In this document: positions 8,967 through 58,303 of the stretch, one piece after another
Numbering within the stretch: the stretch's first letter is position 1
Layout: every line of letters begins with the position of its first letter
Source of the DNA: Candidatus Oxydemutatoraceae bacterium
GTDB lineage: Bacteria; Pseudomonadota; Gammaproteobacteria; Poriferisulfidales; Oxydemutatoraceae
Length of the DNA stretch: 64,000 nucleotides
Direction: 5' to 3'
NCBI GenBank assembly: GCA_965220085.1
Contig: CBDCOZ010000003.1
Location: forward strand, 640,001 to 704,000
Program-made: the position numbers and the translations under genes
The notes under the pieces: generated by a model
Databases searched by the model: none
What the model saw: only the letters and a program-made list of their open reading frames with translations
What the model was told of the DNA's origin: nothing

Positions 8967-10209
8967 AGAGGCGCAAGCGCAAGCTCAGGTGCTCCACCAG
9001 ATGTATGTTCATCGTGCGGGCTTCGGTGTTGCCGGTGCCATCATAGTTCACCATGTAGGTGAAACTGGCGAAGTTGGGGGCGGCGGCGGAGTCTTCCGGG
9101 GGATAATAGATGAGCTCTCCATTTCGTATTGAGTCCCCGTTTACAGTGAGGTTGTCTGCAATGGCTACTGATCCTCCCAGGAGAAATGTGCCCCTGCCCG
9201 ATGCTATGGTGGTGATTACGGGCACGCTTTTCAGAGCGCCGGTGGGATCGTTCGGGAACATAAAGTCGGATGGCTTGAACCTGTAGGGCGCGTCTGCGTC
9301 GGCGGTAATCGGCACACTCACCGAATTGGCTCTGGCGATGATGGCGCCTGTGGTGCACAGCGTGGGGGCATCGGCGTCGCCGCCCTCTTCGGTGCCTATG
9401 CCGTCGGTGAAACGGAGACAAACGCGGATGTATTGGCCGATATGTTCCCGCCCCGGTGTGAAGGCGTCGGCGGTGGCTCCGGCGATGTTTTCGTATGTGC
9501 CAGCCTGGGTGGCGGACTGTTGCCATTGCCAACTGCGTCTGTGGGTGGGGATGCCGTTGGGCTCGGTGATGCCGGCAGTGCCGGCAATCAGTTCCGCATC
9601 CTCGTTGTAGGCGACGCCCGATGCCGCCGTGACCGTCGGTGCGCCGGTGGCCGCCGTATTTGTGGACGGCACCAGATCTACGGTGATGGTGGCGGCGGGC
9701 CCTTCGCTGTTTGCCGTCCAGGTAAAGGTGGTATAGCCCGCCATGGGCATGTCAGCGCTACGGGGAAAATACTTTACGGTGCCAATGTCAGCAAGGGGTA
9801 TATTCGCAATCGTTCGGCCTACAACAGTGACACCGCGCGTCAACTCAAACTGTCCGTCGCTTTGGAGCACCCCCAACGAAGTCGAGGTTATGCTCCCTGT
9901 GGCATTGGCGGGGGCGGTCTCAAAGTGTACGCTGGTCAAGGTATTGGCATTGCCAAACGGAAAATCACCCGCCGAGAAAGTATAACTGAGGCCCGCCGGC
10001 ACATAGATGGTGTTGTTCTGCGCCACAGGCGCGCTTTGCGCTTGGGCTTGCGCACAGGCAACAAACAGCGCTGGCAACATCAGCAATCGGAGGCTGCGCC
10101 GTATCATCGTTGCCCGCCGATAGGGGGGGGGGGGGGGGGGGGGGGCTATATAAACAGTGGCGGAAGCGCCGGGGGTGCCAGGCTGGTGACGAATTATTTT
10201 GATGTTCAT
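8944..10209 (-). CDS. LEGPLR-family secreted protein 1 (cadherin-like/Ig-like repeats); poly-C23 in frame
   Basis: GGAGA RBS before ATG 10209; poly-Pro from G23 at 10123-10145; signal peptide ...LFVACAQAQA; ends LSLRLRLFLEGPLR. Confidence 0.85.
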   Translation of the reverse strand: MNIKIIRHQPGTPGASATVYIAPPPPPPPYRRATMIRRSLRLLMLPALFVACAQAQAQSAPVAQNNTIYVPAGLSYTFSAGDFPFGNANTLTSVHFETAPANATGSITSTSLGVLQSDGQFELTRGVTVVGRTIANIPLADIGTVKYFPRSADMPMAGYTTFTWTANSEGPAATITVDLVPSTNTAATGAPTVTAASGVAYNEDAELIAGTAGITEPNGIPTHRRSWQWQQSATQAGTYENIAGATADAFTPGREHIGQYIRVCLRFTDGIGTEEGGDADAPTLCTTGAIIARANSVSVPITADADAPYRFKPSDFMFPNDPTGALKSVPVITTIASGRGTFLLGGSVAIADNLTVNGDSIRNGELIYYPPEDSAAAPNFASFTYMVNYDGTGNTEARTMNIHLVEHLSLRLRLFLEGPLR

Positions 10210-32433: not shown

Positions 32434-35159
32434 TACCGCAGCGGCCCCTCCAAGAAGATGCGCAAGCGCAGGCGCAGGTCGCCCCCCAGATGGATGTTCA
32501 TGGTGGCGGGCGCGCTACTCTCCGTGCCATCGCTGACAGTGAATTTAAATGAGTCATAGTTTCGCCCCGCTTCCGCACCGTCCGCCGGGTAGTAAGCGAG
32601 CATGGAGATGTCGGACACAGACACCACGTTGTTTTTGCTCGAGCCGGATGTCAACAGCGCTTCGCCGCCTACCAACAAAGCGCCCTTGTCCGGCGCATCG
32701 GTGATGGTGATACCTTGCAGAGAGTCACCGGTGTCCTCGTCGGCAAACGGGAAGTCGCTCTTCTGAAATGCATGGGGCATCTCCTCGGTGGTCATGGTGG
32801 GCACGGACACTTCGCTGTCTTCGGTCATCGGCGCATCGTTGACATTGGCAACCCGCGCACCAGCGGAACAGAGCGGGCCCTCGTCGGTGTCTATGCCATC
32901 TTTAAATGTCAGGCAGACGCGGATGTATCTGCCCACCTGAGCTTGCCGCGGGGTGAAGGCGGCGGCGGCGGCTCCGGCGATGACGGCGTAGGCGCTGTCC
33001 GCCGGGGCGTTGCCGTTGGCGGGGGCGGCGGCAGATTCCCACTGCCACATCAGGGTTCTGCGGTCTATGCCGTTGCCATCGGTGATGTCGTCGACGGAGG
33101 CGGTCAATTCCGTGTCCTCGTCGTAGGCGGCGCCGGCAACCGCTGTCACCGTCGGCATGCCGGTTGCCGTTGATTGCATGGCCGACACCAGGGCTATGGT
33201 GATGACGGCCTCGTTGCTATCCTTCGCATCCGTGCCGGTTCGGACGCTGTACGTAAATCTGTCATAGTTCGCCGTGGGCGTGGTGGCATCCGCGGCAAGG
33301 ACATAGACCAACTCGATCCCTCCTTCTTCTCCGAGTTGCTCAAATTCTTCCCTTGTGAATGCTGCGGGAACGCTCGTTAAAGTTGCAGCAGTAGCGGTGG
33401 CGGGGCGGCGGAGAGACAGCGTACCGTTGTCAGGCAGACTGACTAATTGCATGTGAACCAAGGCATCCCCGTCCTCGTCGCTAAACGGAAAATCATCCGC
33501 CGAGAAATCATAACTGCGGCCCGCGGCCACGGGGATGGTATTGCCCGGCGCCACCGGCGCATCGGCGACATCGGCGGTCGTGATGGAGGCGGAATAGAGC
33601 GGACCCTCGCTCTCGCCCAGGCCATCGTCAAAGGTGATGCGGACGCGGGTATGCATGCCCACCTGGGCCTGGGTCAGGGCGAAGGCGGCATCGGTGGCCC
33701 CGGTTATGTTGGTCCAGGCGCTGCTTGTCGGCGGCGGGGCCGCGCCATCGACCGGGGCGGCTTGCTGCCACTGCCACCTGACTGTGCCCTCGTCTATGCC
33801 GTTGCGGTCAAATATTATAAAGTTCGTGCCGTCATCGTATGCGGCGGTCAGCACGGTGTGCTGGAGTTGGCTGGCGCCCGAGGGGGTGATGGCTGGCGCA
33901 CCGCCGGCGGGGACCTGGTTGGTGTCTGCCAGACGGATGTTCATGATGGCGGGGCCAGCGCTTACATTGGTTTCTATCTCTTCGCCATTGGCATCCACCC
34001 TAATATCGTCGCCATCGTCCTCCACCCAGAATCTGAACTGGGCGTAGAATGAACCTGTCAAATTATAGCGGTCGGTGACAGGCCTATAGCTGACCGTCGG
34101 ATAGTAGGTGAGGTCGCCAGCCTCAAGTTGCGCCACGGTTACGGTGGTCGGGAGGTTGTTGTCGTTCAGGGTTCCGGTGCCATCCAGAACTAAAGTGCCG
34201 GTGCCCTGGGCGTTGCCACTGTGCGGGCTGGGTATAACGATGTTCACCAACGCATCGCCATCGTCATCGGCGAAGCGAAAGTCGGATGGCTTGAAGACAT
34301 ATGGCTCGTCGGAAGTGGCGTCGGCGCGCACCGCAACACTGCTTCGCTGTGCCACCGGCGCATCGTTGGAGTTGACCACCAGCCCCTCGGTGGTGAGGCA
34401 GAAATTTTCCACGGTGCCAAAGTCATCCGTATAGGTGATACAGCAACGGATGCGATTGCCGACATGTTTCTGGTCGGGGGTAAAAGACAGGATTAGTCTG
34501 CTGGTTTCGGTGAATATCCCGTCGCCGCCATTATCGGCGCTCCAAATATATGTGGCATTGTGGAGACTACTCAAACCGTCGGCGTCGTTTATGCCCTCGG
34601 GTATCAGTCCTATGCCCATGCCCTCTACGAGTGCGCCGGTCAGCGCAGGGGCGCCTTCACCGGTTCCCATGGTAAACATGGGGTTGTCGGGCGGATTATT
34701 GAATCCGGTCACGGCATCGTCTATCCGATGGCATCTCGTCTCGGAATTGGGGGTGGCGGCCATATCCATGAACGTGGCGCAGACCTGCAGATACTTGCCC
34801 ACCTGATCCTGTCGCGGGGTTAAGGTGGCGGTGTTCGCGTTATTGGATCTGGTGGCGGTGATGTCGGTATAGGTGCCGCCGTTGGAGTCGGCCTGGCTCC
34901 ATTGCCAAGTGGCGACGAAGGGGTCTGGCAACCCATCGGTGTCGGCTATGTCGCCCTTGGATGCGGTGATGGCGATGTTCCTGTTGGGGGCGCTGAGCTC
35001 TCTGGCGTAGGATACGGCGGGCTCACCGGTGGCGTTCTGCGCCTGTGCCTGAGCGCAGACAGCGAGCATGGCGAGCACAAAAAGACCGCGCCCGATCATC
35101 GTTGCCCACCCGTATGTGCACAGGGGGGGGGGGGTAGCATTAAAAACTTGTTTATTCAT
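32433..35159 (-). CDS. LEGPLR-family secreted protein 2 (large; cadherin-like and disulfide-bonded repeats); poly-C12 in frame
   Basis: RBS GGAGAG before ATG 35159; G12 at 35123-35134; ...LAVCAQAQA; NDAP / DF.F.D.DGD motifs; ends LRLRLRIFLEGPLR. Confidence 0.88.
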   Translation of the reverse strand: MNKQVFNATPPPLCTYGWATMIGRGLFVLAMLAVCAQAQAQNATGEPAVSYARELSAPNRNIAITASKGDIADTDGLPDPFVATWQWSQADSNGGTYTDITATRSNNANTATLTPRQDQVGKYLQVCATFMDMAATPNSETRCHRIDDAVTGFNNPPDNPMFTMGTGEGAPALTGALVEGMGIGLIPEGINDADGLSSLHNATYIWSADNGGDGIFTETSRLILSFTPDQKHVGNRIRCCITYTDDFGTVENFCLTTEGLVVNSNDAPVAQRSSVAVRADATSDEPYVFKPSDFRFADDDGDALVNIVIPSPHSGNAQGTGTLVLDGTGTLNDNNLPTTVTVAQLEAGDLTYYPTVSYRPVTDRYNLTGSFYAQFRFWVEDDGDDIRVDANGEEIETNVSAGPAIMNIRLADTNQVPAGGAPAITPSGASQLQHTVLTAAYDDGTNFIIFDRNGIDEGTVRWQWQQAAPVDGAAPPPTSSAWTNITGATDAAFALTQAQVGMHTRVRITFDDGLGESEGPLYSASITTADVADAPVAPGNTIPVAAGRSYDFSADDFPFSDEDGDALVHMQLVSLPDNGTLSLRRPATATAATLTSVPAAFTREEFEQLGEEGGIELVYVLAADATTPTANYDRFTYSVRTGTDAKDSNEAVITIALVSAMQSTATGMPTVTAVAGAAYDEDTELTASVDDITDGNGIDRRTLMWQWESAAAPANGNAPADSAYAVIAGAAAAAFTPRQAQVGRYIRVCLTFKDGIDTDEGPLCSAGARVANVNDAPMTEDSEVSVPTMTTEEMPHAFQKSDFPFADEDTGDSLQGITITDAPDKGALLVGGEALLTSGSSKNNVVSVSDISMLAYYPADGAEAGRNYDSFKFTVSDGTESSAPATMNIHLGGDLRLRLRIFLEGPLR

Positions 35160-42502: not shown

Positions 42503-43373
42503 CTACCGCAACGGGCCTTCTAAGAAGAGACGCAAGCGCAAGCGCACATCGGAAGACACCAGGTTGATGGTCATGGTATGTTGTGCGCTGGATGCCGTGC
42601 CATCGCCATCGCCGACGGTGAATCTGAAGCTGGCAAAGTTGGCGGCGGGGGTGGTGTTGGCCGGGGGATGATACCTGAGGGTGCTGATGACATCCCGGCT
42701 GAGGGAGGTGCCGTCGGTGACCGCCACCTGGGAGCTGCCGCTGGCTCTGGTCAGGGTGCCCTTGCCCGATGCTATGGTTTCAACTATGGTTACGCTGGCC
42801 AGGTCGCTGGTCTCCTCGTCCATGAATGGGAAGTCATCGGCCATGAAAATATATGGATTTTCCGCGGTTGCGGCGGAGGACACATTCACAGAGGCATCGT
42901 CGCTGGTGGGCGCATCATTGACAGCGACCACAGCGGTGGCTATCTGCAGGCATCGATTGTCCGTATTGCCGGCGCTGTCGAGAGTGTCCGCGCAGACCCG
43001 CAGATACTTGCCCACATTGGCCTGCAACGGCGTGAAAGTGCCACCGGCGTGAGCGTAAGTGTAGGTGCCGCCATTGGCGTCGGCCTGAAACCATCTCCAA
43101 GATGTGACGTGGACGTCGGTGGTTGGCGTACTGTCAGGGTCCTCAATGGTGCCCTTGTTGGCGGTGATGGGGGAGTCCTCAGTGGGGACGTTTATGCCGC
43201 TGGCGTAGGTGACGGCGGGTTCCCCGGTGGCGTTGCCCTGCGCCTGCGCTTGAGTGCAGACAACAAACAGCACTGGCAACATCAGCGAGCAGAGGCTACG
43301 CCGAGTTAGTCTTGCCCGCCCATTAGGGGGGGGGGGGGGGGGGGGGGGTAGTATTAAAAGTATTTTGGTTCAT
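42503..43373 (-). CDS. LEGPLR-family secreted protein 3; frameshifted at poly-C23 (phase OFF as assembled)
   Basis: ATG 43373 gives MNQNTFNTTP7 then TAA; one C fewer continues ...RRSLCSLMLPVLFVVCTQAQA into ORF 42503-43282, ending VRLRLRLFLEGPLR. Confidence 0.82.
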
Positions 43374-45786: not shown

Positions 45787-47946
45787 ATGATGCCCGTTTT
45801 ATGTCAAATGCGTTTTTCCCACACAAACCAACCGCGACGGACGACAGCCCGCATACCGACACGACAAGAAATCTATGATGCGCTGTGCGATAGCGCGTCC
45901 GCGCCGTTGCGGTTTGAGCGGATATTGAAGCTCTTCGGCTTGAAAAGTCCGGCTTCCCGTCACGCCTTGCTGAACCGTCTCAATGCCATGTTGCGCAGCG
46001 GCGAGATCACCTGCGCCGATGCCCGCTACGGCCCGGCGCCCGATTGCCACAGCCAATCTATCGAGGGGATTGTGACGCGCAAGGACGGCAAATTATTTCT
46101 GCGCTCCGATGCCGAAGACATTCCGTTGCCGCAGCGTCTTGCGCGGCGGCTCTTTGTCAATGACAAGATCCGTTTGCGTTTGGTCGGCGCGGACAAAGCA
46201 TCGTTGCGCCCGGTTGCGGCGGAAGTGTCCGAGCGCAGCCACGAGATAATCGGAGTGTTTCGCGCGCGCGACAGCGTCGTTGTTTCGCTGCAAGACGACA
46301 CGCCGATACGCGTTGACAAAAAGGCCGCCCAAGGCATCGCCGACGGCGCGACGGTGGCGGCAAAATTATCGCCGCCGACGTTTCTTGGCGAAGAGTTGGC
46401 GGCGGCATCGGTCGCGGTGCGCAAGCAAACGAATATTGCGGCGCTTGAGATAGATTTGGCAATACGCAACTTTGGTTTGCCCGAGCGCTGGCCGGATGCG
46501 GCGCTGCGCGAGAGCGAGACCATCGCCGACAAAGTGCGCCGCAAACCGTCCAAAGTCCGGCGTGATCTGCGCGACAAATGCTTTGTGACGATAGACGGCG
46601 AGGATGCCAAGGATTTTGATGACGCGATTTTGGTCGAACATACGGACGGCAAGACCTATCTGTCGGTTGCGATTGCCGATGTCGCGTCCTATGTCGCGCC
46701 GGGCAGCGCCTTGGACAAGGAAGCGTACCTGCGAGGGAATTCGATTTATTTTCCGGGCAAGGTGATTCCTATGTTGCCGCCGATGTTGTCCGACGGCTTG
46801 TGTTCCTTGCGCCCGGGCGAAGATCGGCTTGCCATGGTGTGCGCGATGTGCCTGTCATCGGACGGCGAACTGGGCGACTATCGGATTTTCCCGGCGGTAA
46901 TTCGTTCGCATGCGCGGCTGACATACGGGAATGTCGCGGCCTTTCTGGCCAGGAAAGGGGCATTGCGCGATGCCCCTCGCGGTGTGGCGACGATGCTGCG
47001 CAACGCCTATAAACTTTGGCAAGTTCTGCATCGGGCGCGGCGCCGGCGCGGCGCGCTCGATCTGGATGTGCCGAGCGCATACGTTGCGTTCGATGCCCAA
47101 GGCGGGTTTCGCTCGGCCGAGCCGCTCGTGCGCAACGATGCGCACCGCATGATCGAAGAGTTCATGATTTGCGCGAATGTGGCGGCCGCCCGTTTTTTGT
47201 CACAGCACAAAGCCGCGTATCTGCGCCGCGTACATCAGGGTTTGAAGGAAGACGGCTTGGATAGTCTGAATGACTTTTTGCGCGATCTAAAGCTGCGGGC
47301 GAAGGACGAGACGCCTTCCGATATCGCCGCATTGTTGAACGAAGCGGAAACGCACCAACACAAGCAACTGATACATCTGGTTATCCTGCGCTTGCTCGCC
47401 CGCGCCGTCTATGCGCCGCTCGATAGCGGACATTTTGGTCTGGCGCTGGAGAAATATGCGCATTTTACTTCGCCGATCCGTCGCTACCCCGACCTGCTGG
47501 CGCATCGCGCGATTCATGCCGCGTTGGGTTTGCCGGCGGGACAAAAGCACGGCGACAAGAGTTTGACCGACATCGGAATCCATTGTTCGGAAACAGAAAA
47601 GCGCGCCGACGATGCGACCAGAGACATCGACCGTTGCTTTAAGTGCCATCTCTTGCAGAAACATGTCGGAAGTGTTTTCAACGCATGCGCGCAGGGCATA
47701 ACCGATTTCGGCATGTTTATGGAAATCGAAGGGATGTATGTTGACGGCTTGCTGCATATAAGCAAGCTCGGCGATGACTATTACCATTATGATTCCCGTT
47801 CCCAATCGTTGCGAGGGGAGCGCAACGGCGCGGTCTATCGTTTGGGATCACGGATGAAAGTGCGCATTGTCCGGGTGGACCCCGCTAAGCGGGAAGTGGA
47901 CATAGTGCCCGCGAATCAGAGCGCCCGGCGCGGGAGAAAGCGCTAG
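45787..47946 (+). CDS. rnr: Ribonuclease R
   Basis: TIDGEDAKDFDDA, IEEFMI.AN, HFTSPIRRYPDL, C-terminal S1 domain. Confidence 0.95.
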   Translation: MMPVLCQMRFSHTNQPRRTTARIPTRQEIYDALCDSASAPLRFERILKLFGLKSPASRHALLNRLNAMLRSGEITCADARYGPAPDCHSQSIEGIVTRKDGKLFLRSDAEDIPLPQRLARRLFVNDKIRLRLVGADKASLRPVAAEVSERSHEIIGVFRARDSVVVSLQDDTPIRVDKKAAQGIADGATVAAKLSPPTFLGEELAAASVAVRKQTNIAALEIDLAIRNFGLPERWPDAALRESETIADKVRRKPSKVRRDLRDKCFVTIDGEDAKDFDDAILVEHTDGKTYLSVAIADVASYVAPGSALDKEAYLRGNSIYFPGKVIPMLPPMLSDGLCSLRPGEDRLAMVCAMCLSSDGELGDYRIFPAVIRSHARLTYGNVAAFLARKGALRDAPRGVATMLRNAYKLWQVLHRARRRRGALDLDVPSAYVAFDAQGGFRSAEPLVRNDAHRMIEEFMICANVAAARFLSQHKAAYLRRVHQGLKEDGLDSLNDFLRDLKLRAKDETPSDIAALLNEAETHQHKQLIHLVILRLLARAVYAPLDSGHFGLALEKYAHFTSPIRRYPDLLAHRAIHAALGLPAGQKHGDKSLTDIGIHCSETEKRADDATRDIDRCFKCHLLQKHVGSVFNACAQGITDFGMFMEIEGMYVDGLLHISKLGDDYYHYDSRSQSLRGERNGAVYRLGSRMKVRIVRVDPAKREVDIVPANQSARRGRKR

Positions 47947-48168
47947 TTCATATCCGTTGTTTTCTTTGGGCATAAAACCGAAGGCGAATCATGCCAGAAA
48001 CATTGCGGGTTGCCGGCTTCAAGCCGCAATAGCAAGCCATCGCCGCCGATAGCCAAGATTTCCATATAAATAGCCGCTTCCGCCGCAAAAGAGGCGGCTA
48101 TCAGTGATAAGGCCAAAGCGCGAAGCCTTGCCCTGTGTGCCCAATATGTCACGGCATCCTACAGGCGC

Positions 48169-48196
48169 TTGCAAATAACTTGCACTGTGGTATAGT
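48169..48196 (+). promoter_or_regulatory. Putative promoter of the LEGPLR array
   Basis: TTGCAA-16bp-TATAGT with extended -10 (TG). Confidence 0.6.
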
Positions 48197-48339
48197 GCGG
48201 TTTAGAAAGGATGGTCGGAGACGCTGGCGCTGTTTTTCTTGCAAAAGGCTTGCGCTTTGCAGCAGACTGCGGCATACGGTGCTAAGAGCACCGACGTATA
48301 ACTTGTATTTACCGGAGATAAACCATGAGGAGTAATAGC

Positions 48340-49528
48340 ATGAATCGACAGACTTCTAATACTTCCCCCTCAAGCAGGCGGAAGATCTTGCATTTGCAGG
48401 CATGTAGTGCGAAGCAAAAAACGTTAATACTACCCCCCCCCCCCCCCCCGCTATGTAAATAAGGGGATTGCGGGCGTTTCGCCGTCTCGCCTCTTCACCC
48501 GTTTTTTATCACCCGCATATCGCAACCCGCCATCCGCCGTAGCGCGGCTGCGTTGCCCGGCTGTGCCCGGTCTGCGGCTTTCGCTATGGCGGCGATTTGT
48601 GGCGCTCTTTGCGCCCGCACGGGCGGCGGCGCCGACCGACGGGGTTGCATCAAGAACTGCCATGCATTGCCTGCTGGCATTGTCCCTGGCATTGGGCGCA
48701 ACCTGCGCCTCGGCCCAGACAAGCGGCATCCCCGCCGCCCAGGATATCAGCATTGATGCCGAGGTTTGGGGTAGTTCCTACGAGTTTGCTCTCAACGACT
48801 TTGCCTTCAAAAATGCGGATGGCAGCCCCACCACCAGAAGTGATTTCGTCGTGGAAATAGCCACTTTGCCTGACCGTGGCATATTGGTTAAAAGAAGCGG
48901 GCGGGTTATTCGCATCAATCAGGTGCAGAGTGCGATCCACCCTTCCGACTTAAGGGGAGGCGAGTCTTTGCAATTACTCTGGGTGCCTCCCTCTGATGTC
49001 ATTTCCGAAACCCCCGGCTATACCAGTTTCACTTATCGCGGCTACAGTTTCAGGGATCCCAGCACCTACAGTTCGCATGGCACCGTCACCATCAATATGG
49101 TGGCGCTTCGCGAAGCGCAACAAATCGCCGATGGTGCGCCCACGGTGACGGGTAGCACGGGCATTTCATATGATGTCAATGCGCCGCTGACGGCTTCCAT
49201 CTATGGCGTGACTGATCGCAACGGCATTGATACAAGCACCCTGGGCTGGAAGTGGCAACAGGCCGATGCGCCCGTCAGCGGTGTTCCCGCAGACAGCGCC
49301 TACATTGACATAGCGGGCACCATGACAACGGGCGGCCTCACCTCCGCCTTCACGCCGCGCGCCGCCCATGTCGGCAAATACATTCGCGTATGCGCCTCCT
49401 TCAAGGACCAGCACCCCATGCCGGAATCCGAGGAGCAATGCACCATCGGTCTTCCTGTGGAAGGTGCGTCGTCCGGCGCAAGTTTGCGTTTGCGTCTGCG
49501 TCTCTTTCTGGAAGGGCCGTTGCGGTAA
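48340..49528 (+). CDS. LEGPLR-family secreted protein 4; frameshifted at poly-C17 (phase OFF)
   Basis: ATG 48340 after GAGGAG; C17 at 48433-48449 leads to TAA at 48460; 16 C would read RYVNKG...RFLSP... into ORF 48563-49528. Confidence 0.82.
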
Positions 49529-50631
49529 TGGAAACTTCACATAGGAGATATTTAAAAATGTTTGCAGTACTTACATCCATGCATCGCCTTGCGGGCATAG
49601 CGAGCGCTTCGCCGCATAAGCTTGCCGGTCGCTTTTTATCGCCCGCACATAGCAACCCGCCATCCGCAAAGCGGTGCGTGTCGGCTGTGCGCGGGTTGTC
49701 GCTGTGGTTGCGGTCTGTTGCGGTGCGGAAGGCAGGCGCCGGCGGCGCCGTAGCTGGATGCGCCATGCATTGCCTGCTGGCATTGTCCCTGGCGTTGGGC
49801 GCAACCTGCGCCTCGGCCCAGACAAGCGGCATCCCCGCCGCTCAGGATATCAGCATTGATGTCCCTGTTGGGAACCTTACCTACATCTTTCAGGAAAACG
49901 ACTTTGCCTTCAAAGATGCGGATGGCAGCACTGCCACCAGAAGCGAATTCGGCGTGGAACTCATCACTTTGCCTGACCGCGGCATATTGATTAGAAGAAA
50001 CGGAGGATTAATCCGCATCGATGGGACGAGACTCTTCGCTCCCACCTTTGACGCCGATTCTGGCAACAATCTGTTCTGGGTGCCTCCCTCTGATGCCATT
50101 TCTGCCGCCCCCGGCTATGCCAGTTTTGCTTATCGCGGCGTCGCTTTCAGCGATGTCAACGCCATAAGTTCGCATGGCACCGTCACCATCAATCTGGTCA
50201 TAGACGAAACCTCGCAGGTAGCCGCCACCGGTGTGCCCGCGGTGACGGGCGGCACGGGCGCTTCATATGGAATCAATGCGCCGCTGACGGCTTCCATCTA
50301 TGGCGTGGCTGATGACAATGGCATTGATACAAGCACCCTGAGCTGGAGGTGGGAAGAAGCCGATATCCCCGCCACCGGCACCTCTGTAGCCCGTGAGGAT
50401 GCCTACGGCGATATAGCGGGTGCCGCGACAACGGGCGGCATCACCTCCGGCTTCACGCCGCGCGCCGCCCATGTAGGCAAATACATTCGCGTATGCGCCT
50501 CCTTCAAGGACCAGCACCCCACGCCGAAAGACGAGAAGCGATGCAACGTCGGCGTTCCTGTGGTCAATCCGTCGTCCGGCTCAAGTCTGCGTTTGCGCCT
50601 GCGTCTCTTTCTGGAAGGGCCGTTGCGGTAA
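49528..50631 (+). CDS. LEGPLR-family secreted protein 5 (paralog of protein 4), coupled by TAATG
   Basis: METSHRR leader, ...ATCASAQ signal cleavage, ends LRLRLRLFLEGPLR. Confidence 0.85.
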   Translation: METSHRRYLKMFAVLTSMHRLAGIASASPHKLAGRFLSPAHSNPPSAKRCVSAVRGLSLWLRSVAVRKAGAGGAVAGCAMHCLLALSLALGATCASAQTSGIPAAQDISIDVPVGNLTYIFQENDFAFKDADGSTATRSEFGVELITLPDRGILIRRNGGLIRIDGTRLFAPTFDADSGNNLFWVPPSDAISAAPGYASFAYRGVAFSDVNAISSHGTVTINLVIDETSQVAATGVPAVTGGTGASYGINAPLTASIYGVADDNGIDTSTLSWRWEEADIPATGTSVAREDAYGDIAGAATTGGITSGFTPRAAHVGKYIRVCASFKDQHPTPKDEKRCNVGVPVVNPSSGSSLRLRLRLFLEGPLR

Positions 50632-50674
50632 TGGGAAACACACTTTATGTACAAACCACATCGGGAGTCATACT

Positions 50675-51418
50675 ATGAATAGACAAATTTCTAATACTGC
50701 CCCGCATTGGCGGGCAACACTCACCCGGCTTAGCCTCCGGTCGCCGATTGCGTCTTCACGCGGGGCGTCTGATTTAAGTTCGCATCATCTTAAAATTGCG
50801 GGAGGGATTTGCGCGGCGATGATGCTCGCTTGCGCATTCGCCGCGAACAGCGTGTCAGCGCAAACTTGTCCGCAGGGACAGGAAAATGTTCGCGGAACTT
50901 GCCGCAATGTTTGCGCCGACGGAGAAATGCGAATCACTTCCACAGTGTCGGGTTTCGAATTTAACACCGGTTGCTTTCCCGATGCGGAGATTGCCATTGT
51001 GGATGACTGCAGGGATGCGGGATGGGGGGACGGCACCGGCGACGGAGTCGGAATATTTTTTTCACTGGGGCTGTTGGGTTGCCAAATTCCGTCCGAGCTT
51101 TATGCCAGCACATCCTCGCGAGCAGACAGCCTCTGCTACATCCGAGGGGGCGCGCCATTATGCGCAGACATGTACGGCGCTCCGCCGGCTTTTCCGAAAG
51201 CCGCGGAACACCCCGATGTCACAGTAGGGTCCAATGCTTTCTTTGTGGCAAATTGCGACCGCAACGGGAATGTCCCCGGCGGTTATCCGCCGGACCGCAA
51301 CTTGAACGGCGAAACCGAATGCAGTTGCAATCCGGGTTCGCACTTCGGCGAATATCCGAACTGCGCTCCGGGCCCGCGTTTGCGTCTGCGTCTCTTTCTG
51401 GAAGGGCCGTTGCGGTAA
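50675..51418 (+). CDS. LEGPLR-family secreted protein 6, cysteine-rich body
   Basis: RBS GGAG; extended leader, ...AANSVSAQ; many Cys; ends PRLRLRLFLEGPLR. Confidence 0.82.
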   Translation: MNRQISNTAPHWRATLTRLSLRSPIASSRGASDLSSHHLKIAGGICAAMMLACAFAANSVSAQTCPQGQENVRGTCRNVCADGEMRITSTVSGFEFNTGCFPDAEIAIVDDCRDAGWGDGTGDGVGIFFSLGLLGCQIPSELYASTSSRADSLCYIRGGAPLCADMYGAPPAFPKAAEHPDVTVGSNAFFVANCDRNGNVPGGYPPDRNLNGETECSCNPGSHFGEYPNCAPGPRLRLRLFLEGPLR

Positions 51419-52584
51419 TGGAAACTTCACATAGGAGATATTTAAAAATGTTTACAGCACTTACATCCATGCGCCGCCTTGCGGGCATAGCGGGCGCTTC
51501 GCCGCATAGGCTTGCCGGCCGCTTTTTATCACCGACACATCGCGACTCGCCATCCGTCGTAGCGCGGTTGCATCGCCCGGCTGTGGTCTGGCTGTTGCTT
51601 CCGCTGGCGCTGCTGTCCGCTCTGGCCTCCCCCGCGTTCGCGCAGTCGCTCAGCTTTGCATTTGATCTGAGTGATCGGGTAACGGTCACAGGCCGGACCA
51701 TAAGCTGGCAGTTGCCCGCAGTTCGGCAGAGCGGCGCCTACGCCTATGCGCTCGCACCCGCAACCCTGCCCGCAGGGATGACATTCTCCGCCGCCACCCG
51801 GCAAATTACGGGCACAGTCACAGCCGCCATGGCCAAAACGGAGTACACATACACCGCCACCAACGCAGACGGCGGCTCGGTGAGCGGGACTTTCGCCATT
51901 GAAGTGTTTCAGGGGCCCACATGGGAAGCCAGAGTTGGCTTCTCCCTCGCCACAACACTAGCCACTCTGGCAGTAGCTCAGGACTTGGGGGGCGATAATC
52001 AAATTTGGCTGGCGGGCGAGGCTTTGCCTGGCATGTCGATCAACCCCGTTGGCGGCACCATACCATATGCCTATACGCTATCGCCCGCGACCCTGCCCGC
52101 CGGTGTGACCGGCGCAATAAACCCTCAAATTACTGACTGGTTTCAGTTTTCCGGAACACCGACAGAAGCCATGCCCACCACCACCTACACGCTGACGGCG
52201 ACGGATTCGGCCAGCCCTCCGGTGTCCGTCGATTACACCTTCACCATCACGGTGGAAGCCGATACCGCGCCCGATTTTGGCGATGCATCGGTGGGCACCC
52301 GTATTTGGCCGCCCGGCACGACCGCAACGCTGGTATTGCCCGCAGCCACCGGCGGCAATGGCGCCATCACCTATGCGATCACTCCGAATCTGCCCGACGG
52401 CCTCGCCTTTGATGCCGACACCCGCACCATCAGCGGCGCACCCTCAACCGCTACGGCCGTCGCCGAATACACCCTCACCGCCACCGACGACGAAGGCGAC
52501 ACGGGCACGCTGACCTTCGGCATAGACGCGATGCACCCCATGCGCTTGCGTCTGCGCCTCTTCTTAGAAGGCCCGTTGCGGTAG
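51418..52584 (+). CDS. LEGPLR-family secreted protein 7 with three putative-Ig (He_PIG-like) repeats
   Basis: TAATG start; LPAGMTFSAATRQITGT, LPDGLAFDADTRTISGAP; ends MRLRLRLFLEGPLR. Confidence 0.87.
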   Translation: METSHRRYLKMFTALTSMRRLAGIAGASPHRLAGRFLSPTHRDSPSVVARLHRPAVVWLLLPLALLSALASPAFAQSLSFAFDLSDRVTVTGRTISWQLPAVRQSGAYAYALAPATLPAGMTFSAATRQITGTVTAAMAKTEYTYTATNADGGSVSGTFAIEVFQGPTWEARVGFSLATTLATLAVAQDLGGDNQIWLAGEALPGMSINPVGGTIPYAYTLSPATLPAGVTGAINPQITDWFQFSGTPTEAMPTTTYTLTATDSASPPVSVDYTFTITVEADTAPDFGDASVGTRIWPPGTTATLVLPAATGGNGAITYAITPNLPDGLAFDADTRTISGAPSTATAVAEYTLTATDDEGDTGTLTFGIDAMHPMRLRLRLFLEGPLR

Positions 52585-52657
52585 CGCGAATCGCCGCCGG
52601 CGGCGAACATGATATTTGCCCCGCGCGTCCGATAGGTCACGGCAATCCTACAGGCGC

Positions 52658-52685
52658 TTGCAAATGATTTGCACTGTGGTATAGT
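52658..52685 (+). promoter_or_regulatory. Putative promoter, second module of the array
   Basis: TTGCAA-16bp-TATAGT in near-identical context to 48169. Confidence 0.6.
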
Positions 52686-52895
52686 GCGGTTCAGAAAGGA
52701 TGGTCGGAGACGCCAGCGCTGTTTTTCTTGCAAAAGGCTTGCGCTTTAGCAGATTACAGCACTAAGAGTACCGACATTAAATAATCCGCAAACAGTTTGT
52801 GGAGCGCAAACAATACTCAATTGTTTGCGGCTTCTTAAATTGTTTGTGTACATAATGATTGTATTTACCGGAGGTAAACCATGAGGAGTAATAGC

Positions 52896-54889
52896 ATGAA
52901 CCGACAAACTTCTGATACTTCCCCCTCTAGCAGGCGGAAGCGATCGCATTTTCGAGCATATATCTTGAAATACAAAACCTTTAATACCCCCCCCCCCCCC
53001 CCCCTCCTCCTGTAGCCACTGAACAGCGGTTCAGTTGCCGCAGCCTTCGGTCGCTGACCATCCTCACTTTGTTTGCGTTGTGCGCTCAGGCACAGGCGGC
53101 CACGCCAGTGCCCAAGGACAGTAGCATAGATGTGTATATATCTGCCACCGCCACCAACCCGTACACTTTCAAGGCCGGTGATTTCCCGTTTGAAGATGCC
53201 GATGGCGATGCTCTTTCAAGCATCAGCATAGAGACCCTGCCCGATAAGGGTACCCTGCGGGTGGGCGAATCAGATGCCACCCAGTTCCAGCAAGTGACCG
53301 CCGCCGCCATCCCCACCATCACCTGGCGCCCCGCATTGAATCAGTCCGCAGGCAACAACCACACCAGCTTCACATTTGGCGTACACACCAGGGGCAGAAG
53401 CATAATGACCGGCACCGTCACCATCAACCTCATATATGTGAATTCTCCCGCCACCGGCGCCATTATCATTCTGGACACAGGCGGCTTTGCCCTGACCGAC
53501 ACCCACGCACCGGACGAACACGAGGCTCTGGCCGCCCGCGCGGACTCCATAACCGATGCCGACGGCTTGAATGTCAACCTGACCTCAAGCCAGCGATGGC
53601 AATGGAGCGCGGATGACGCGGGCAACGGCGTATTCGCCGCCATCGCCGGAGCCACCATGAGCACCTTCACCCCCCGGGCCGGGCATACGGGCAATGCCCT
53701 GCAGGTCTGCTACAGCTTCACCGATGACCGCGGCGGCATGGAGCAGGTGTGCGCCACCACTCAGCCAGTCGCCGATGTGAACAGCGCTCCGGTGGCCATA
53801 GACAACACCGTATCCGTGCCCTGGACCGCCACCGAGAATGCCCAATTCTCCATGAACCTGAACCACTTCACCTTTGAGGATGCCGACCATCATGGCCTGC
53901 ACAGCCTCATCATAACCGCGCTGCCATCAAGGGGCACTCTTACCTTCGCCGGCGTCACTGTGAGATCTTCATTTCTGCCTTCCCAACTAAGCAGATCCGG
54001 TCTCGTTGCGGGCCGCCTCGCATACTATCCGGCGCCAAATGTGGCTCAACAGGCCGCCGCAGGGTACGACAGCTTCACCTTTCAAGTGGTCGACAATGGC
54101 CCCGGCGCAGAAGCCAGCAGCGCATCCGCCACCCTGACCATAGATCTGGTGGCCCCGGCAATGCAGATGCCAGCCACTGGCATGCCCAGCATCATCGGAG
54201 TTCTGGACCCGGTCACCGGCGGCTATCAGGAAGGCCAAATTTTGGCCTCTAACACAGTTGGAATAGACGACCCCAACGGCATAAACCAGCAGACCCTGAC
54301 AAGGGAATGGCAGGTATCTGCCACCGAGAACGGACCCTGGACCCAGGAATCAAGCAGCTTATTGCTGCTGGAACAAAAGCATGTGGGCGGGTATGTGCGC
54401 TTGTGCATCAGCTTTGATGACCTGCACCCCGCCCCCAACAGAGAGGGGCCTTTGTGCACCATGGCTTTCCCCGTTGCCAACCTCGGCGACCAGCCAATAC
54501 CGCAAGACCGCACCATCCAGGTGCGATTGGATGCCAGCATGGCAAGCCCCTACAGATTCACCGCAGCCGACTTCCCATTCGAGGATGAGGATAACGACGG
54601 CCTTGCAAGCATCACCCTGGAATCAATCCCTGCCGTCGGCACGTTGCGCGTGGGCGATGCCGCCGCCGTCGTCGGGCAGGTTGTGGATGTCGACGACATC
54701 CCCGCCATTAACTATTACCCGGAGCCCGGTCAAGCCTCCGCTGAGGGCTACGCCTCTTTCAGATTCAGGTTAACCGACGACAGCAACGACGGCGGGCGCA
54801 GTGACAGCTTAGGGGCTGGCACCATCACCATAAATCTGGGGGGGCTTACCTTGCGCTTGCGCCTCTTCCTGGAAGGGCCGTTGCGGTAA
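52896..54889 (+). CDS. LEGPLR-family secreted protein 8 (cadherin-like repeats); frameshifted at poly-C18 (phase OFF)
   Basis: ATG 52896; C18 at 52987-53004 leads to TAG at 53013; 19 or 16 C would read ...CRSLRSLTILTLFALCAQAQA into ORF 53069-54889. Confidence 0.82.
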
Positions 54890-54932
54890 TGCGAAACGCA
54901 CTTTATGCACAAACCATATCAGGAGTAGAACT

Positions 54933-55056
54933 ATGAACAGACAAATTTTTGATACGCGCCCGCGCAGTCTTGTAAGTAAGGGGATTGACTGGCGACCGGC
55001 AATGACCCGGTTTAGCCTCCAGTCGCCGATTGCGTCTTCATGCAGGATGTCTCATT
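54933..55056 (+). pseudogene. Leader-only relic paralogous to the 5' end of gene 50675
   Basis: MNRQIFDT...WRPAMTRFSLQSPIASS vs MNRQISNT..WRATLTRLSLRSPIASS; interrupted by a copy of the rnr 3' end and upstream module. Confidence 0.7.
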
Positions 55057-55292
55057 CGCGGGAGAAGGCGCTAGTTTGTATCCGTTGTTTTCTTTGGGCA
55101 CAAAACCGAAGGCGAATCATGCCGGAAACATTGCGGATTGCCGGCTTCAAGCCGCAATATCAGCGGCGCCGGCAGCAACGATTTCCATATAAATAGCCGC
55201 TTTCGCCGCAAAAGAGGCGGCTATCGGTGATAAGGCCAAAGCGCGAAGCCTTGCGCCGTATGTCCCATATGTCATGGCGATTCTACAGGCGC

Positions 55293-55320
55293 TTGCAAAT
55301 GATTTGCACTGTGGTATAGT
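55293..55320 (+). promoter_or_regulatory. Putative promoter, third module of the array
   Basis: TTGCAA-16bp-TATAGT. Confidence 0.6.
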
Positions 55321-55586
55321 GCGGTTCAGAAAGGATGGTCGGAGACGCCAGTGCTGTTTTTCTTGCAAAAGGCTTGCACTTTAGCAGACTACGGCATACG
55401 GCTAAGAGTACCGACATTAAATAATCCGCAAACAGTTTGTGGAGCGCAAACAGTGATGGAACGCAAACAATTTGAGGAACCACAAACAATAGTATTGTTT
55501 GTGCTCTTATATCGTTTGTGCCTCTAAATACTGTTTGTGTACATAATGATTGCATTTACCGGAGATAAACCATGAGGAGTAATAGC

Positions 55587-56787
55587 ATGAACCGACAAAA
55601 TTTTAATACTGCCTCCTTTAACAGGAGGAAGCGATCGCATTTTCGAGCATATATCTTGAAATACAAAACCTTTAATACCCCCCCCCCCCCCCCCCCGCTA
55701 TGTAAATAAGGGGGTTGCCAGCGTTTCGCTGTATCGCCTTCTCACCCGTTTTTTATCACCGACACATCGCGACTTGCCATCCGTCGGAGCACGGTTGCAT
55801 CGTCTGGCCGCGGCCGGGCTGCCGGTTGCGCTATTGTTGCTGTCTGTTGCGGCCTCCCCCGCGCTCGCGCAGAGCAGCTTTGATGGCAGCCTACCGGATC
55901 GGAGGTCTGCCACAAATGTTAGCGTATTCTGGACTCTCCCCAAAGCTCTTCCGGAAGGCGCCTACACCTATGCGCTTGCGCCCGCCACCCTGCCTGCGGG
56001 CCTGACATTCTCGGCCTCCACCCGGCGAATCACGGGTACGACCACAGCCGCCATGGCCGAAACGGAGTACACATACACCGCCACCGCCGCAGACGGCGGC
56101 ACACTGAGCGGGACTTTCACCATTGAAGTATTGCGGGGGCCCACATGGCTTCTGGGCGCCAGGTTCTCTACTCTGATGTCTACCCAGGAGTTGGGGGGCG
56201 ATAATCAGATTTGGCTGGCGGGCGAGGCTTTGCCGGGTTCTTATGAAATCTTCCCCAGTGGCGGCGTTAGGCCCTACACCTATACCCTGTCACCCGCGAC
56301 CCTGCCTGCCGGTGTGACCGGCGCAAGCAACGATCTTGGCTTTTTTGAGTTTTCCGGAACACCGACAGAAGCCATGCCCACCACCACTTATACGCTGACG
56401 GCGACGGATTCGGCCAGCCCCCCGGTGTCCGCCGCATACACTTTCACCATCACGGTGGAAGCCGATACCGCGCCCGATTTTGGCGATGCATCGGTCGGCA
56501 CCCGTATTTGGCCGCCCGGCACGACCGCAACGCTGGTATTGCCCGCAGCCACCGGCGGCAATGGCACCCTCACCTATGCGATCACTCCGGATCTGCCCGA
56601 CGGCCTCGCCTTTGATGCCGACACCCGCACCATCAGCGGCGCACCCTCAACCGCTACGGCCGTCGCCGAATACACCCTCACCGCCACCGACGACGAAGGC
56701 GACACGGGCACGCTGACCTTCGGCATAGACGCGATGCACCCCATGCGCTTGCGTCTGCGCCTCTTCTTAGAAGGCCCGTTGCGGTAG
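55587..56787 (+). CDS. LEGPLR-family secreted protein 9 (He_PIG-like, paralog of protein 7); frameshifted at poly-C19 (phase OFF)
   Basis: ATG 55587; C19 at 55678-55696 leads to TAA; 18 C would read RYVNKG...RFLSPTHRDLPS into ORF 55774-56787. Confidence 0.82.
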
Positions 56788-56983
56788 CGCGAATCGCCGC
56801 CGGCGGCGAACATGATATTTGCCCCGCGCGTCCGATAGGTCACGGCATCCTGCGGAAGGTATGCATTCCGTATGGTAGTATTAGCCCTGTCACGGGCTGT
56901 TTTCGGCTTTCTGATAAAAGTCTTCGCGTGATGATGCGGGTCAAGCCGATGGTAATACATTCAAAGTTGAACATATCTTTTTC

Positions 56984-58303
56984 ATGGACGATAGCTTAAA
57001 GTTAGGCGCTTCTAAGCGCTATCCGCGCTTGCATCGCTACTCCGGTTGCGATCAGGGACTCAATCCGAACGATGTGTGCCCCGAGGCATTCGGGGTCATC
57101 AAGCGATTGCAAGAGGCCGGTTATTCGAGCTATATCGTCGGCGGCGGCGTGCGCGATATGTTGCTCGGCAGGGAGCCGAAAGACTTTGACATCGCCACCG
57201 CGGCGCGGCCCAAGCAAGTGCGGCGATTGTTTTCAAATTCGCGATTGATCGGGCGGCGTTTCAAACTGGCGCACATCTATTCCGGCAATACGGTTACCGA
57301 GGTGGCGACATTTCGCCGCGGCGTCGGCGATGCCGATGACATCGGCGATAGGCAAGCGCATCGGGTCACTTCCGGCGGGCGTATCGTCAGAGACAATGTG
57401 TACGGCTCTATCGAGGAGGATGCTGTGCGTCGCGATTTCACTGTTAATTCCATGTATTACGACCCGTGCTCGGACAAATTGATGTGCCACGAACAGGCGC
57501 TGAAGGATATACGCAATCGCTGCTTGCGCCTGATCGGCGAACCCGAGAAGCGGTATCGCGAAGACCCGGTGCGCATGTTGCGCGCCTTGCGCTTTTCGGC
57601 AAAACTCGGATTTAACCTTGAGGGGGCGGTGGGAAAAGGCATTACCGCGCAGCGCAAGTTGCTCTATGATGTGTCTGCGGCGCGGTTGTTTGATGAGGTC
57701 GTCAAGCTGTTTCACAGCGGCAGCGCCGAGAAGAGTTACCGGCTGTTGCGCCGCTATGATCTGCTTGAGATATTGTTTCCGTTGACCGTGGCTTCTTTCA
57801 AAGACAAAGAAATGGGCGCCCGTTACGAGCGTTTTCTGCAACAGATGTTTGTCAATACCGATGCCAGGATTGAGAAGGACTTGCCGGTGACGCCCGGGTT
57901 TATCATTTCCGGCCTGTGGTGGCTGCCGGTGCGGCACAGGTTGCGGCAGGCGGTTGCCGAAGGCGCTACGTCGCATAATGGCTTGGTGTGGGCGATACGC
58001 GATGTCGTCGCGCAATCGCATTATCGGGTATCGGTGCCGATGCGTTTGCGCGCGGTGGCGCGCGATATTTTGACGCTGCTCCCCCAGTTTGAAAAGTTTC
58101 AAAAAAAGTGCGTTTATCGGACGCTGGAGCATCCTCGCTTCCGCGCCGCATACGATATGTTTTGTCTGCTGGCACAGAGCGGGCTTGCGGATGTCCGTGC
58201 CGGCGAGTGGTGGACAGAGATACAAACCCTTGACGCGGATGCGCGGGAAGAGATGATCGAGCGGCGCGCGCAACGCAAGAAAAAGAGGCGCAAAGGGTCA
58301 TGA
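56984..58303 (+). CDS. pcnB: Poly(A) polymerase I
   Basis: VGGGVRD, PKDFDIAT, LIGRRF.LAH, RRDFTVN, EDPVRMLRA. Confidence 0.96.
   Translation: MDDSLKLGASKRYPRLHRYSGCDQGLNPNDVCPEAFGVIKRLQEAGYSSYIVGGGVRDMLLGREPKDFDIATAARPKQVRRLFSNSRLIGRRFKLAHIYSGNTVTEVATFRRGVGDADDIGDRQAHRVTSGGRIVRDNVYGSIEEDAVRRDFTVNSMYYDPCSDKLMCHEQALKDIRNRCLRLIGEPEKRYREDPVRMLRALRFSAKLGFNLEGAVGKGITAQRKLLYDVSAARLFDEVVKLFHSGSAEKSYRLLRRYDLLEILFPLTVASFKDKEMGARYERFLQQMFVNTDARIEKDLPVTPGFIISGLWWLPVRHRLRQAVAEGATSHNGLVWAIRDVVAQSHYRVSVPMRLRAVARDILTLLPQFEKFQKKCVYRTLEHPRFRAAYDMFCLLAQSGLADVRAGEWWTEIQTLDADAREEMIERRAQRKKKRRKGS

Follow-up and report, generated by a model that had tools for sequence, protein, structure and literature searches.

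How does a row of neighbouring paralogs come to join two kinds of leader with two kinds of body in every possible combination, and does the arrangement reflect exchange between genes or some other history? The locus lies in a window of 64,000 nt, the whole stretch of DNA analysed here, and had been described in an earlier note as a six-gene array.

Leaders and bodies form a mosaic

Six whole genes are indeed present, accompanied by a truncated seventh leader at 54933-55056 that the earlier note had missed. Every gene of the array is on the + strand. The locus, between the RNase R and poly(A) polymerase genes, appears to be organized as three transcription units (g1-g4; g5 and the remnant; g7), and the promoter-like site TTGCAA-16-TATAGT is found only ahead of g1, g5, and g7. 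Rfam gave no match over 47000-57500. The features are as follows.

47929-48302, +: g1 upstream module, beginning within the final 18 nt of the RNase R gene
48169-48196, +: g1 promoter-like site TTGCAA-16-TATAGT, within the g1 upstream module
48340-48432, +: g1 head, a 31-codon leader ahead of the poly-C
48433-48449, +: g1 poly-C, 17 C within the coding leader, out of frame with the body
48449-49528, +: g1 body frame, with post-tract leader RYVNKG..RFLSP, signal peptide, body X (two Ig-like domains), and end tag; RFLSP motif at 48500-48513
49484-49525, +: g1 end tag, 14 residues
49486-49666, +: tract apparently exchanged between g2 and g4, equivalent to 51376-51556 (92.8%), its first 78 nt identical
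49528-50631, +: g2, with second leader type, body X, and end tag; RFLSP motif at 49630-49643
50631-50678, +: relay reading frame of 15 codons between g2 and g3
50675-51418, +: g3, with a common-class leader whose C-run is only CCCC, a cysteine-rich body, and end tag
51418-52584, +: g4, with second-type leader, body Y (He_PIG repeats), and end tag; RFLSP motif at 51520-51533
52145-52649, +: probable recent conversion or duplication tract common to g4 and g7, counterpart in the 56346-56851 region
52658-52685, +: g5 promoter-like site TTGCAA-16-TATAGT
52896-54889, +: g5, with a 30-codon head, poly-C, unrelated post-tract leader, five Ig-like domains, and end tag
52987-53004, +: g5 poly-C, 18 C, out of frame
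54889-54936, +: second relay frame
54933-55056, +: truncated g3-like leader, joined to a copy of the g1 upstream module
55057-55586, +: g7 upstream module, a copy of 47929-48295 plus a part resembling the g5 upstream region
55293-55320, +: g7 promoter-like site
55587-56787, +: g7, a three-part chimera of g5-like head, g1-like post-tract leader, and g4-like body Y and tail; RFLSP motif at 55747-55760
55678-55696, +: g7 poly-C, 19 C, out of frame

The g1 head has an additional in-frame ATG at 48325, and is 87.7% alike to the head of a paralogous array on contig C1.

Self-BLASTN of 47800-57000 agrees with the claim that two leader types and two bodies occur in all four combinations. g1 matches g7 over the leader (48303-48587 / 55550-55834, 79.7%) and g2 over the body (48500-49534 / 49630-50637, 76.8%), while g4 matches g2 over the leader (49486-49666 / 51376-51556, 92.8%) and g7 over the body (51494-52649 / 55721-56851, 83.6%). 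Each leader type is therefore paired with body X (g1, g2) and with body Y (g4, g7). Beyond the parts in common, identity in sliding windows falls to 30-45%. Body Y is He_PIG (Pfam E 4.7e-26 and 2.4e-28) and the g5 body has a Big_9 match, while Pfam searches of body X and of the cysteine-rich g3 body gave no match. Foldseek with a g2 model found nothing beyond generic matches to tandem Ig-like folds, at low TM-scores. The second leader type has two matches genome-wide, g2 and g4.

The switch from leader to body had been placed at the shared RFLSP sequence. The motif is present in all four genes, as claimed, but the switch is a zone and not a single point. The joint is a block of about 110 nt around CGYTTTTTATCRCC, common to both body types; CGYTTTTTATCRCC matches four times in the window (48500, 49630, 51520, and 55747) and in none of 100 shuffles. 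The likeness of g1 and g7 continues about 70 nt beyond the motif, and that of g4 and g7 begins about 25 nt ahead of it. The three-part composition proposed for g7 is likewise borne out by the identities. Ahead of its poly-C, g7 is 92.2% identical to g5 over 128 nt, versus 78-82% for g1; after it, g7 is 89% identical to g1 over 64 nt, and g5 has no match there.

Bodies had also been said to move between phase-variable and translationally coupled positions. Body Y does occupy both kinds of position, internal in g4 and behind a head in g7, while the coupling is read from TAATG overlaps, which join the g2 start to the g1 stop and the g4 start to the g3 end. The ATG of the relay frame at 50631-50678 overlaps the g2 stop in the same way, and its stop overlaps the g3 ATG (ATGA). 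Internal genes, which have no tract, may thus be translated through a stop-start overlap or through the 15-codon relay; g2 and g4 each have an alternative start, an ATG 31 nt downstream with AGGAG ahead (at 49559 in g2).

Poly-C tracts as probable switch and joint

Runs of 17, 18, and 19 C sit behind 30-31 leader codons in g1, g5, and g7. Genome-wide there are 90 poly-C tracts of 9-28 nt. Of the 83 heads scored, 22 have the tract in frame and 61 do not, counts that would be blurred by any errors in the assembled homopolymer lengths. As assembled, none of the three array heads is in frame; loss of a single C would join the g1 head and body frames, and in g1 and g7 both OFF frames meet a stop within 14 nt past the tract. 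A 5' repeat within coding sequence and mixed frame states among heads both point to phase variation by frame shift. We would expect the tracts to slip in living cells, and an OFF head may exert polarity across its operon.

The same tracts had been proposed as joints, and the genome-wide pairing of their flanks supports this. With the flanks of 89 tracts clustered by average linkage, 41 upstream and 30 downstream clusters occur in 67 combinations, between the minimum possible of 41 and the 81.7 +/- 2.1 of random pairing. At the tract itself, 33 + 33 pairs resemble each other on a single side and 10 on both, although part of this one-sided likeness could reflect functional constraint on the short upstream leader and not exchange. 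At 40 nt to either side of the tract, one-sided versus two-sided likeness is 15 versus 29 and 19 versus 44. These counts suggest that, throughout the genome, the poly-C tract is also the main point of module exchange.

Recombination and its alternatives

That recombination at short joints reassorts the modules is supported by the leader tree, AU tests, and identical tracts. In a tree of the 81-nt leader core from all 19 leaders of the class (81 columns only), g2 with body X and g4 with body Y are sisters (100/100), and the three Y genes need three label changes. Congruent leader and body trees would have spoken against reassortment; AU tests reject grouping the leaders of Y genes (p 1.7e-5) and of X genes (p 1.6e-4). 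Nine body-X paralogs, put through a PHI-like permutation test, gave p 0.0015, with 48% of site pairs incompatible among 111 informative sites. Perfect identity extends over 78 nt in g2/g4 and over 262 nt in g4/g7 and ends sharply, against likeness of 45-90% among paralogs elsewhere. The longer tract, at 52388-52649, reaches 65 nt beyond the g4 stop codon, and the 49486-49666 tract runs from the preceding gene's tag through the second-type leader to just beyond the RFLSP motif. Synonymous divergence varies by segment from 0.14 to 0.54. Exact direct repeats of at least 100 nt take in 125 intervals that lie within small family genes or next to them.

The g1 upstream module recurs at 55057-55415 (self-BLASTN, 88.9% over 368 nt), and the g7 upstream region carries a copy of the final 18 nt of the RNase R gene, abutting the truncated leader. 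Both the copy and the remnant look like traces of segmental duplication. The paralogous array on C1 runs X, X, X', Cys-rich, X, Y; because it keeps this order with ordinary leaders, the second leader type is taken to be derived. The exchanged leaders are 6-20% divergent, and most exchange events are therefore old.

We consider it probable that the mosaic arose by repeated homologous recombination among same-orientation paralogs of a phase-variable family of secreted proteins. The family would consist of lineage-specific exported Ig-like or cadherin-like proteins, each unit having the same promoter and a head gene with a long poly-C in its leader coding sequence, where slippage would toggle head translation on and off. 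Unequal crossing-over and gene conversion would act inside the array and genome-wide, with crossovers falling in blocks common to all copies: the poly-C, the RFLSP leader core, the signal peptide, conserved stretches of the domains, and the end tag. One body could in this way have left its internal place in g4 for a head position with a switch in g7, and one leader could have been copied from g2 to g4 or from g4 to g2. The joints are zones of shared sequence and not sites, as expected for general homologous recombination. The genome encodes both RecA and MutS, and the exchange may well depend on RecA.

A mosaic of this kind could in principle be produced by misassembly of near-identical repeats, and the family is highly repetitive. 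However, single contigs built by another assembler cross the joints of g4 (51424-52174) and g7 (55684-56377) and show no difference from the assembly, nor does a Logan contig across g5 (52975-54879). Their agreement does not count as independent support, since they were probably derived from the sample that gave the assembly. Around the joints the four genes are 6-25% different, which allows reads to be placed, and comparable mosaics are seen at 19 leaders and 89 tracts. We regard misassembly as highly improbable. Equally hard to credit is a history with no exchange, in which a single ancestor kept its leaders while the bodies diverged past recognition. Body X does evolve fast (dN/dS about 1), but body Y is He_PIG and body X a different domain pair, each leader type is found with both, and leaders that are 93% alike precede unrelated bodies in g2 and g4. 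The AU tests contradict it as well.

Alternative joints met in the contig run were rejected, having sides of 18-29 nt derived from paralogs elsewhere in the genome; in one contig joint, the sequence linking 55696 to 50709 is the one found directly behind the tract at C3:1715643. The Hi-C run, the sole set of raw reads, contributed 1998 reads, which fell at C-runs in 3 of 30 bins; 1960 of them fit only partly.

Programmed shuffling by a dedicated recombinase acting at RFLSP or the poly-C, of the Mycoplasma vsa, vsp, and vpma type, would account for a short motif common to the joints and for a promoter on three heads only, and the genome does encode three tyrosine recombinases. All three are distant from the array, however, and two are of Xer size; the linked recombinase that the earlier note suggested looking for was not found in the window, and a genome search returned no serine recombinases. 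All genes are on a single strand with no notable inverted repeats (the best pairs, 16-47 nt and 72-100% complementary, lie in promoter regions and terminator palindromes). The ends of likeness vary between pairs by up to about 100 nt, and the swapped parts have diverged by 6-20%. This origin is very unlikely. As for a DGR target, the window contains no reverse transcriptase, and the two RT genes of the genome are at C1:170091 and C3:1925765. The alternative we take most seriously, though still an outside candidate, is template switching guided by the tract, in which replication stalled at one C-run resumes on another in any register and flanking homology is unneeded. It would explain why the discordance has its peak precisely at the tract and is equal on the two sides, why a seven-member upstream cluster including g1, g5, and g7 pairs with at least three downstream clusters, and why g5 and g7 are 92% alike until the tract and unrelated beyond. 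Tracts of 9-28 C nevertheless suffice as ordinary short homology, and the RFLSP zone, domain interiors, and tag are joints without a homopolymer. Homologous recombination among the paralogs is the reading we prefer.

Family scale, end tag, and known systems

Reading frames that end in the tag number 219 and occupy 19.7% of the 2.49-Mb genome; the small paralogs among them number about 170. The ...LFLEGPLR tag was absent from every other genome searched, and a literature search for its letters gave no match. It had been listed among the recombination joints. It does lie inside one exchanged tract (49486-49563), and only that one; mainly it is conserved as protein, with a dN/dS of 0.03 and its variation at third codon positions. 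This pattern argues that the end is kept by protein-level selection and not chiefly as a DNA joint. The tail matched no NCBIfam model for sortase, exosortase, rhombosortase, or similar signals, and direct reading finds no hydrophobic helix in it. Pfam found no C-terminal barrel in the six proteins, and a PF03797 search of the genome returned no matches at E up to 0.001. The proteins are presumably exported to the cell surface.

More tentatively, and with the odds against it, the poly-C tracts might do two jobs, as slippage switches and as register-free joints able to link any of about 40 heads to any of about 30 leader-and-body types. A single tract would then control an entire, changeable group of secreted Ig-like proteins, since heads stand at the front of operon-like arrays. 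Every one of these proteins would be addressed by the 14-residue tag, which would have replaced an autotransporter barrel. A combinatorial system of surface variation with such a scale and design would be undescribed in any symbiont or pathogen.

To our knowledge, mosaic adhesin families with phase variation have been described mainly in a small number of human pathogens, where they range from a handful of genes to some dozens. The bacterium studied here, a deep-branching and uncultured gammaproteobacterium obtained from a host-associated sample, gives 19.7% of 2.49 Mb to such genes, with 83 tract-bearing heads. Autotransporter passengers that have no barrels and have gained a short tag also pose a concrete question of protein export. 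The classical (type Va) autotransporters P0142 and P0100, two proteins of other origin, have passengers 50-60% identical to family members and similar signal peptides; they end in a PF03797 beta-barrel, whereas here the 14-residue tag directly follows the last passenger domain.

Judged by its differing segment histories and tracts of near-identity, the array appears to be a mosaic paralog family of the Opa/Bab kind. As outlined in PMC5483490, babA, babB, and babC of Helicobacter pylori undergo RecA-dependent intragenomic recombination that fuses the 5' part of a paralog with the body of a different one, and a repeat tract may ride on the 5' part so that the chimera becomes phase-variable; the array would share these traits. 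The bab tract is CT and the array tract poly-C, and the bab genes are three paralogs against about 170 small ones here. The bab products are outer-membrane barrels, while the proteins here are secreted, Ig-like, and end-tagged. Unlike bab, the genes here form operon-like arrays in which internal positions have no tract. The Neisseria opa genes, in the account of PMC3960869, share a frame-switching repeat tract in the leader-peptide coding sequence and a diversity mostly derived from recombination among paralogs of the same isolate. They are 3-11 scattered single genes with a pentamer repeat, in contrast to 83 heads that carry long homopolymers. Exchange here involves entire leaders and entire bodies of unrelated folds, and the tract is its principal point. 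Mycoplasma vsa, vsp, and vpma share one expression head used with alternative bodies at a conserved near-5' site, the head being the promoter, to which vsa adds the first part of the coding sequence, as PMC2268961 describes it. There an adjacent tyrosine recombinase makes site-specific inversions between oppositely oriented genes, whereas the genes here run in one direction with no linked recombinase. Relative to these known systems, what is new is the scale, the tract as joint, and the end tag.

Anatomy of the array

The window spans G000:C3:640001-704000 in genome coordinates. The genes under study form a same-strand block flanked by the genes for RNase R (45787-47946) and poly(A) polymerase (56984-58303). 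All array genes share the C-terminal end ...LRLRLFLEGPLR; the 14-residue end tag closes in LEGPLR. Three of them, termed heads, carry a poly-C tract within the leader. Body X consists of two Ig-like domains and body Y of He_PIG repeats.

Genes of the array (window positions, all on the same strand)
48340-49528, g1: head with C17, then a post-tract leader; body X
49528-50631, g2: second leader type (METSHRR type); body X
50675-51418, g3: common leader class, C-run decayed to CCCC; cysteine-rich body
51418-52584, g4: second leader type; body Y
52896-54889, g5: head with C18; five Ig-like domains
54933-55056, remnant: truncated leader without a body
55587-56787, g7: head with C19; body Y

A promoter-like site, TTGCAA-16-TATAGT with TG before the second hexamer, occurs only at 48169, 52658 and 55293, upstream of g1, g5 and g7, which suggests three transcription units. 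The same search gave a fourth match, different from the other three, inside g1. Upstream of g5 (52770-52860) and g7 (55410-55545) are palindromic repeats of the form CAAACA...TGTTTG, which recur ahead of further operons of the family and may be regulator sites. Relay frames of 15 codons are found at 50631-50678 and 54889-54936, each with an ATG overlapping the stop of the preceding gene (TAATG) and a stop overlapping the ATG of the next (ATGA). This exact form is present at 7 of the family's 27 TAATG junctions.

In Pfam, body Y is assigned to He_PIG and g5 matches Big_9, while body X and g3 match no Pfam family and all NCBIfam models score below cut-off. An AlphaFold model of g2 (23 aligned relatives, mean pLDDT 76) shows two beta-sandwich domains predicted with confidence, whereas its leader is disordered, with residues 1-65 below pLDDT 50. 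Foldseek with this model returned generic tandem Ig-like folds, nothing more specific.

Reassortment of leaders and bodies

The earlier note had described that two leader types are each joined to two body types, and self-BLASTN with sliding identity bears this out. The leaders of g1 and g7 are 79.7% identical over 286 nt and those of g2 and g4 92.8% over 181 nt; body X is common to g1 and g2 (76.8%), body Y to g4 and g7 (83.6%), and cross pairs fall to background identity outside a shared block. The RFLSP motif placed at the switch is indeed shared, with four copies in the window and none in 100 shuffles. Its role as the switch point stands only in part: the shared block is there, but because the ends of likeness vary from pair to pair, the joint extends over roughly 110 nt around the motif, a zone and not a point. 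The proposed chimerism of g7 at the poly-C also holds, the gene being g5-like before the tract (92.2%, 128 nt) and g1-like after it (89%, 64 nt).

Congruence of leader and body trees, which would have spoken against shuffling, is rejected. All 19 genomic leaders of the class were compared over an 81-nt core, with body-type labels assigned before tree building. The resulting tree makes g2 (X) the sister of g4 (Y), supported at 100/100, and places each of the three Y genes separately; holding Y together gives an AU p of 1.7e-5, and holding X together 1.6e-4. A PHI-like permutation test on nine body-X paralogs (111 informative sites) gave p 0.0015.

Footprints of exchange are visible along the array. 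The g2/g4 tract is identical over 49486-49563, comprising the preceding gene's tag and the leader start; 13 mismatches follow up to 49666, and beyond this the alignment collapses. For g4/g7 the tract is identical over 52388-52649, which takes in 65 nt past the stop codon; counted from 52145, the likeness is 95.5%. The region upstream of g7 repeats the final 18 nt of the RNase R gene together with all that lies behind it, and adjoins the truncated leader; this is the mark left by a segmental duplication. An unequal crossover within the shared block would join a g1-type leader to a g4-type body, as in g7. The second leader type is confined genome-wide to g2 and g4. Since contig C1 carries a paralogous array (X, X, X', Cys-rich, X, Y) whose leaders are ordinary, this type is derived and was copied inside the present array.

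The poly-C tract and the tag family

C or G runs of 9-28 number 90 in the genome. Of these, 83 follow an ATG leader and precede a long frame; six are without such a leader and one without a long frame. Among the 83 heads, 61 are out of frame and 22 in frame, that is, joined to the body across the tract; the in-frame share is near the one-third expected of free-running switches, bearing in mind that assemblies can misstate the length of homopolymers. In the window, besides the array's own tracts, three long G-runs belong to minus-strand family heads (10123-10145, 35123-35134 and 43326-43348), two in frame and one out. At 48450-48463 and 55697-55710, just past the tract, TAA occurs within 14 nt in both OFF frames (overlapping stops, TATGTAAATAAGG), and a wrong-frame head would therefore terminate at once. 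This stop motif is common to leaders of the RFLSP class.

The flanks of 89 tracts fall into 41 upstream and 30 downstream clusters, which form 67 combinations, against a minimum possible of 41 and 81.7 +/- 2.1 under random pairing. Likeness on one side of the tract only is found in 33 + 33 pairs, versus 10 alike on both sides. The corresponding figures are 0 + 15 versus 29 at -40 nt, 16 + 3 versus 44 at +40 nt and 39 + 2 versus 10 at +80 nt, the last being a one-sided drop into variable sequence. One-sided pairs thus peak at the tract itself, where they divide evenly between the two sides, and these counts suggest that the tract is the family's main reassortment point.

Tag-ending reading frames number 219 genome-wide, 185 of them of at least 150 codons. 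The family occupies 491,283 nt (19.7% of the genome), with 170 small members (median 436 residues), 15 giants, the largest of 15,193 residues, and arrays of up to 12 genes. Around G000:C3:735206 (contig C3 of this genome), an RFLSP-class leader is stacked ahead of a common-class leader in a single gene; leader modules are therefore chainable.

Codon analysis differs by segment. The tag (for example 49484-49525, 50587-50628 and 52540-52581) has a dN/dS of 0.03-0.04 and varies genome-wide at third codon positions. The signal peptide of body X stands at 0.11 and the leader at 0.58-0.76, with equal variation at all three codon positions in the leader core. For the two domains of body X (48671-49484, 49766-50587 and C1 paralogs) the values are 1.05 and 1.17, which beside 0.03 in the tag fit either diversifying or relaxed selection where the protein is exposed. 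These differences argue that the tag is a functional peptide, that the leader is weakly constrained and that the bodies evolve like surface antigens.

Relatives, mechanism and known parallels

The tag DNA pattern occurs 183 times in this genome; it was absent from all 30 relatives searched, 18 from its own family and 12 from the wider order, and from the species and metagenome collections searched. For the RNase R protein, the top hits outside this genome reach 44% identity and come from uncultured gammaproteobacterial genomes. A search with g2 gave 25 homologs, 24 of them from this genome. The sole foreign one, P0007 from another assembly, is 86% like a C1-array gene over body X, but two He_PIG repeats take the place that the tag has in this genome; domains have thus also been reshuffled between relatives. 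Of the 12,882 proteins that a family profile matched (E up to 0.001), most are giant repeat proteins, and among the best 150 (146 new proteins) all nine that end in the tag are from this genome. Two foreign proteins, P0142 and P0100, share 50-60% identity with the family over the passenger and then carry a PF03797 autotransporter barrel. That barrel has no match in this genome, where the tag sits at the position at which linker and barrel would begin.

Two reverse transcriptase genes are present (G000:C1:170091-170651 and G000:C3:1925765-1926349). The former lies about 3.6 kb behind a tag-bearing frame of 2039 residues, and a diversity-generating retroelement at C1 is therefore possible.

The earlier note had proposed a search for a linked recombinase; the window holds no recombinase gene. 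The genome has three tyrosine recombinases, all outside the window, and no serine recombinase; RecA and MutS are present. Because the array genes all have one orientation, no inverted repeats of note were found, the window lacks a recombinase and RecA is present, general homologous recombination fits, and not a dedicated switch of the type described for mycoplasma loci (PMC2268961). Among known systems the bab chimeras of Helicobacter pylori come nearest, and the opa genes are near too. In bab, a 5' part with a repeat tract is transferred onto another body (PMC5483490); in opa, the repeat lies within the leader-peptide coding sequence and diversity arises mainly via recombination inside one isolate (PMC3960869).
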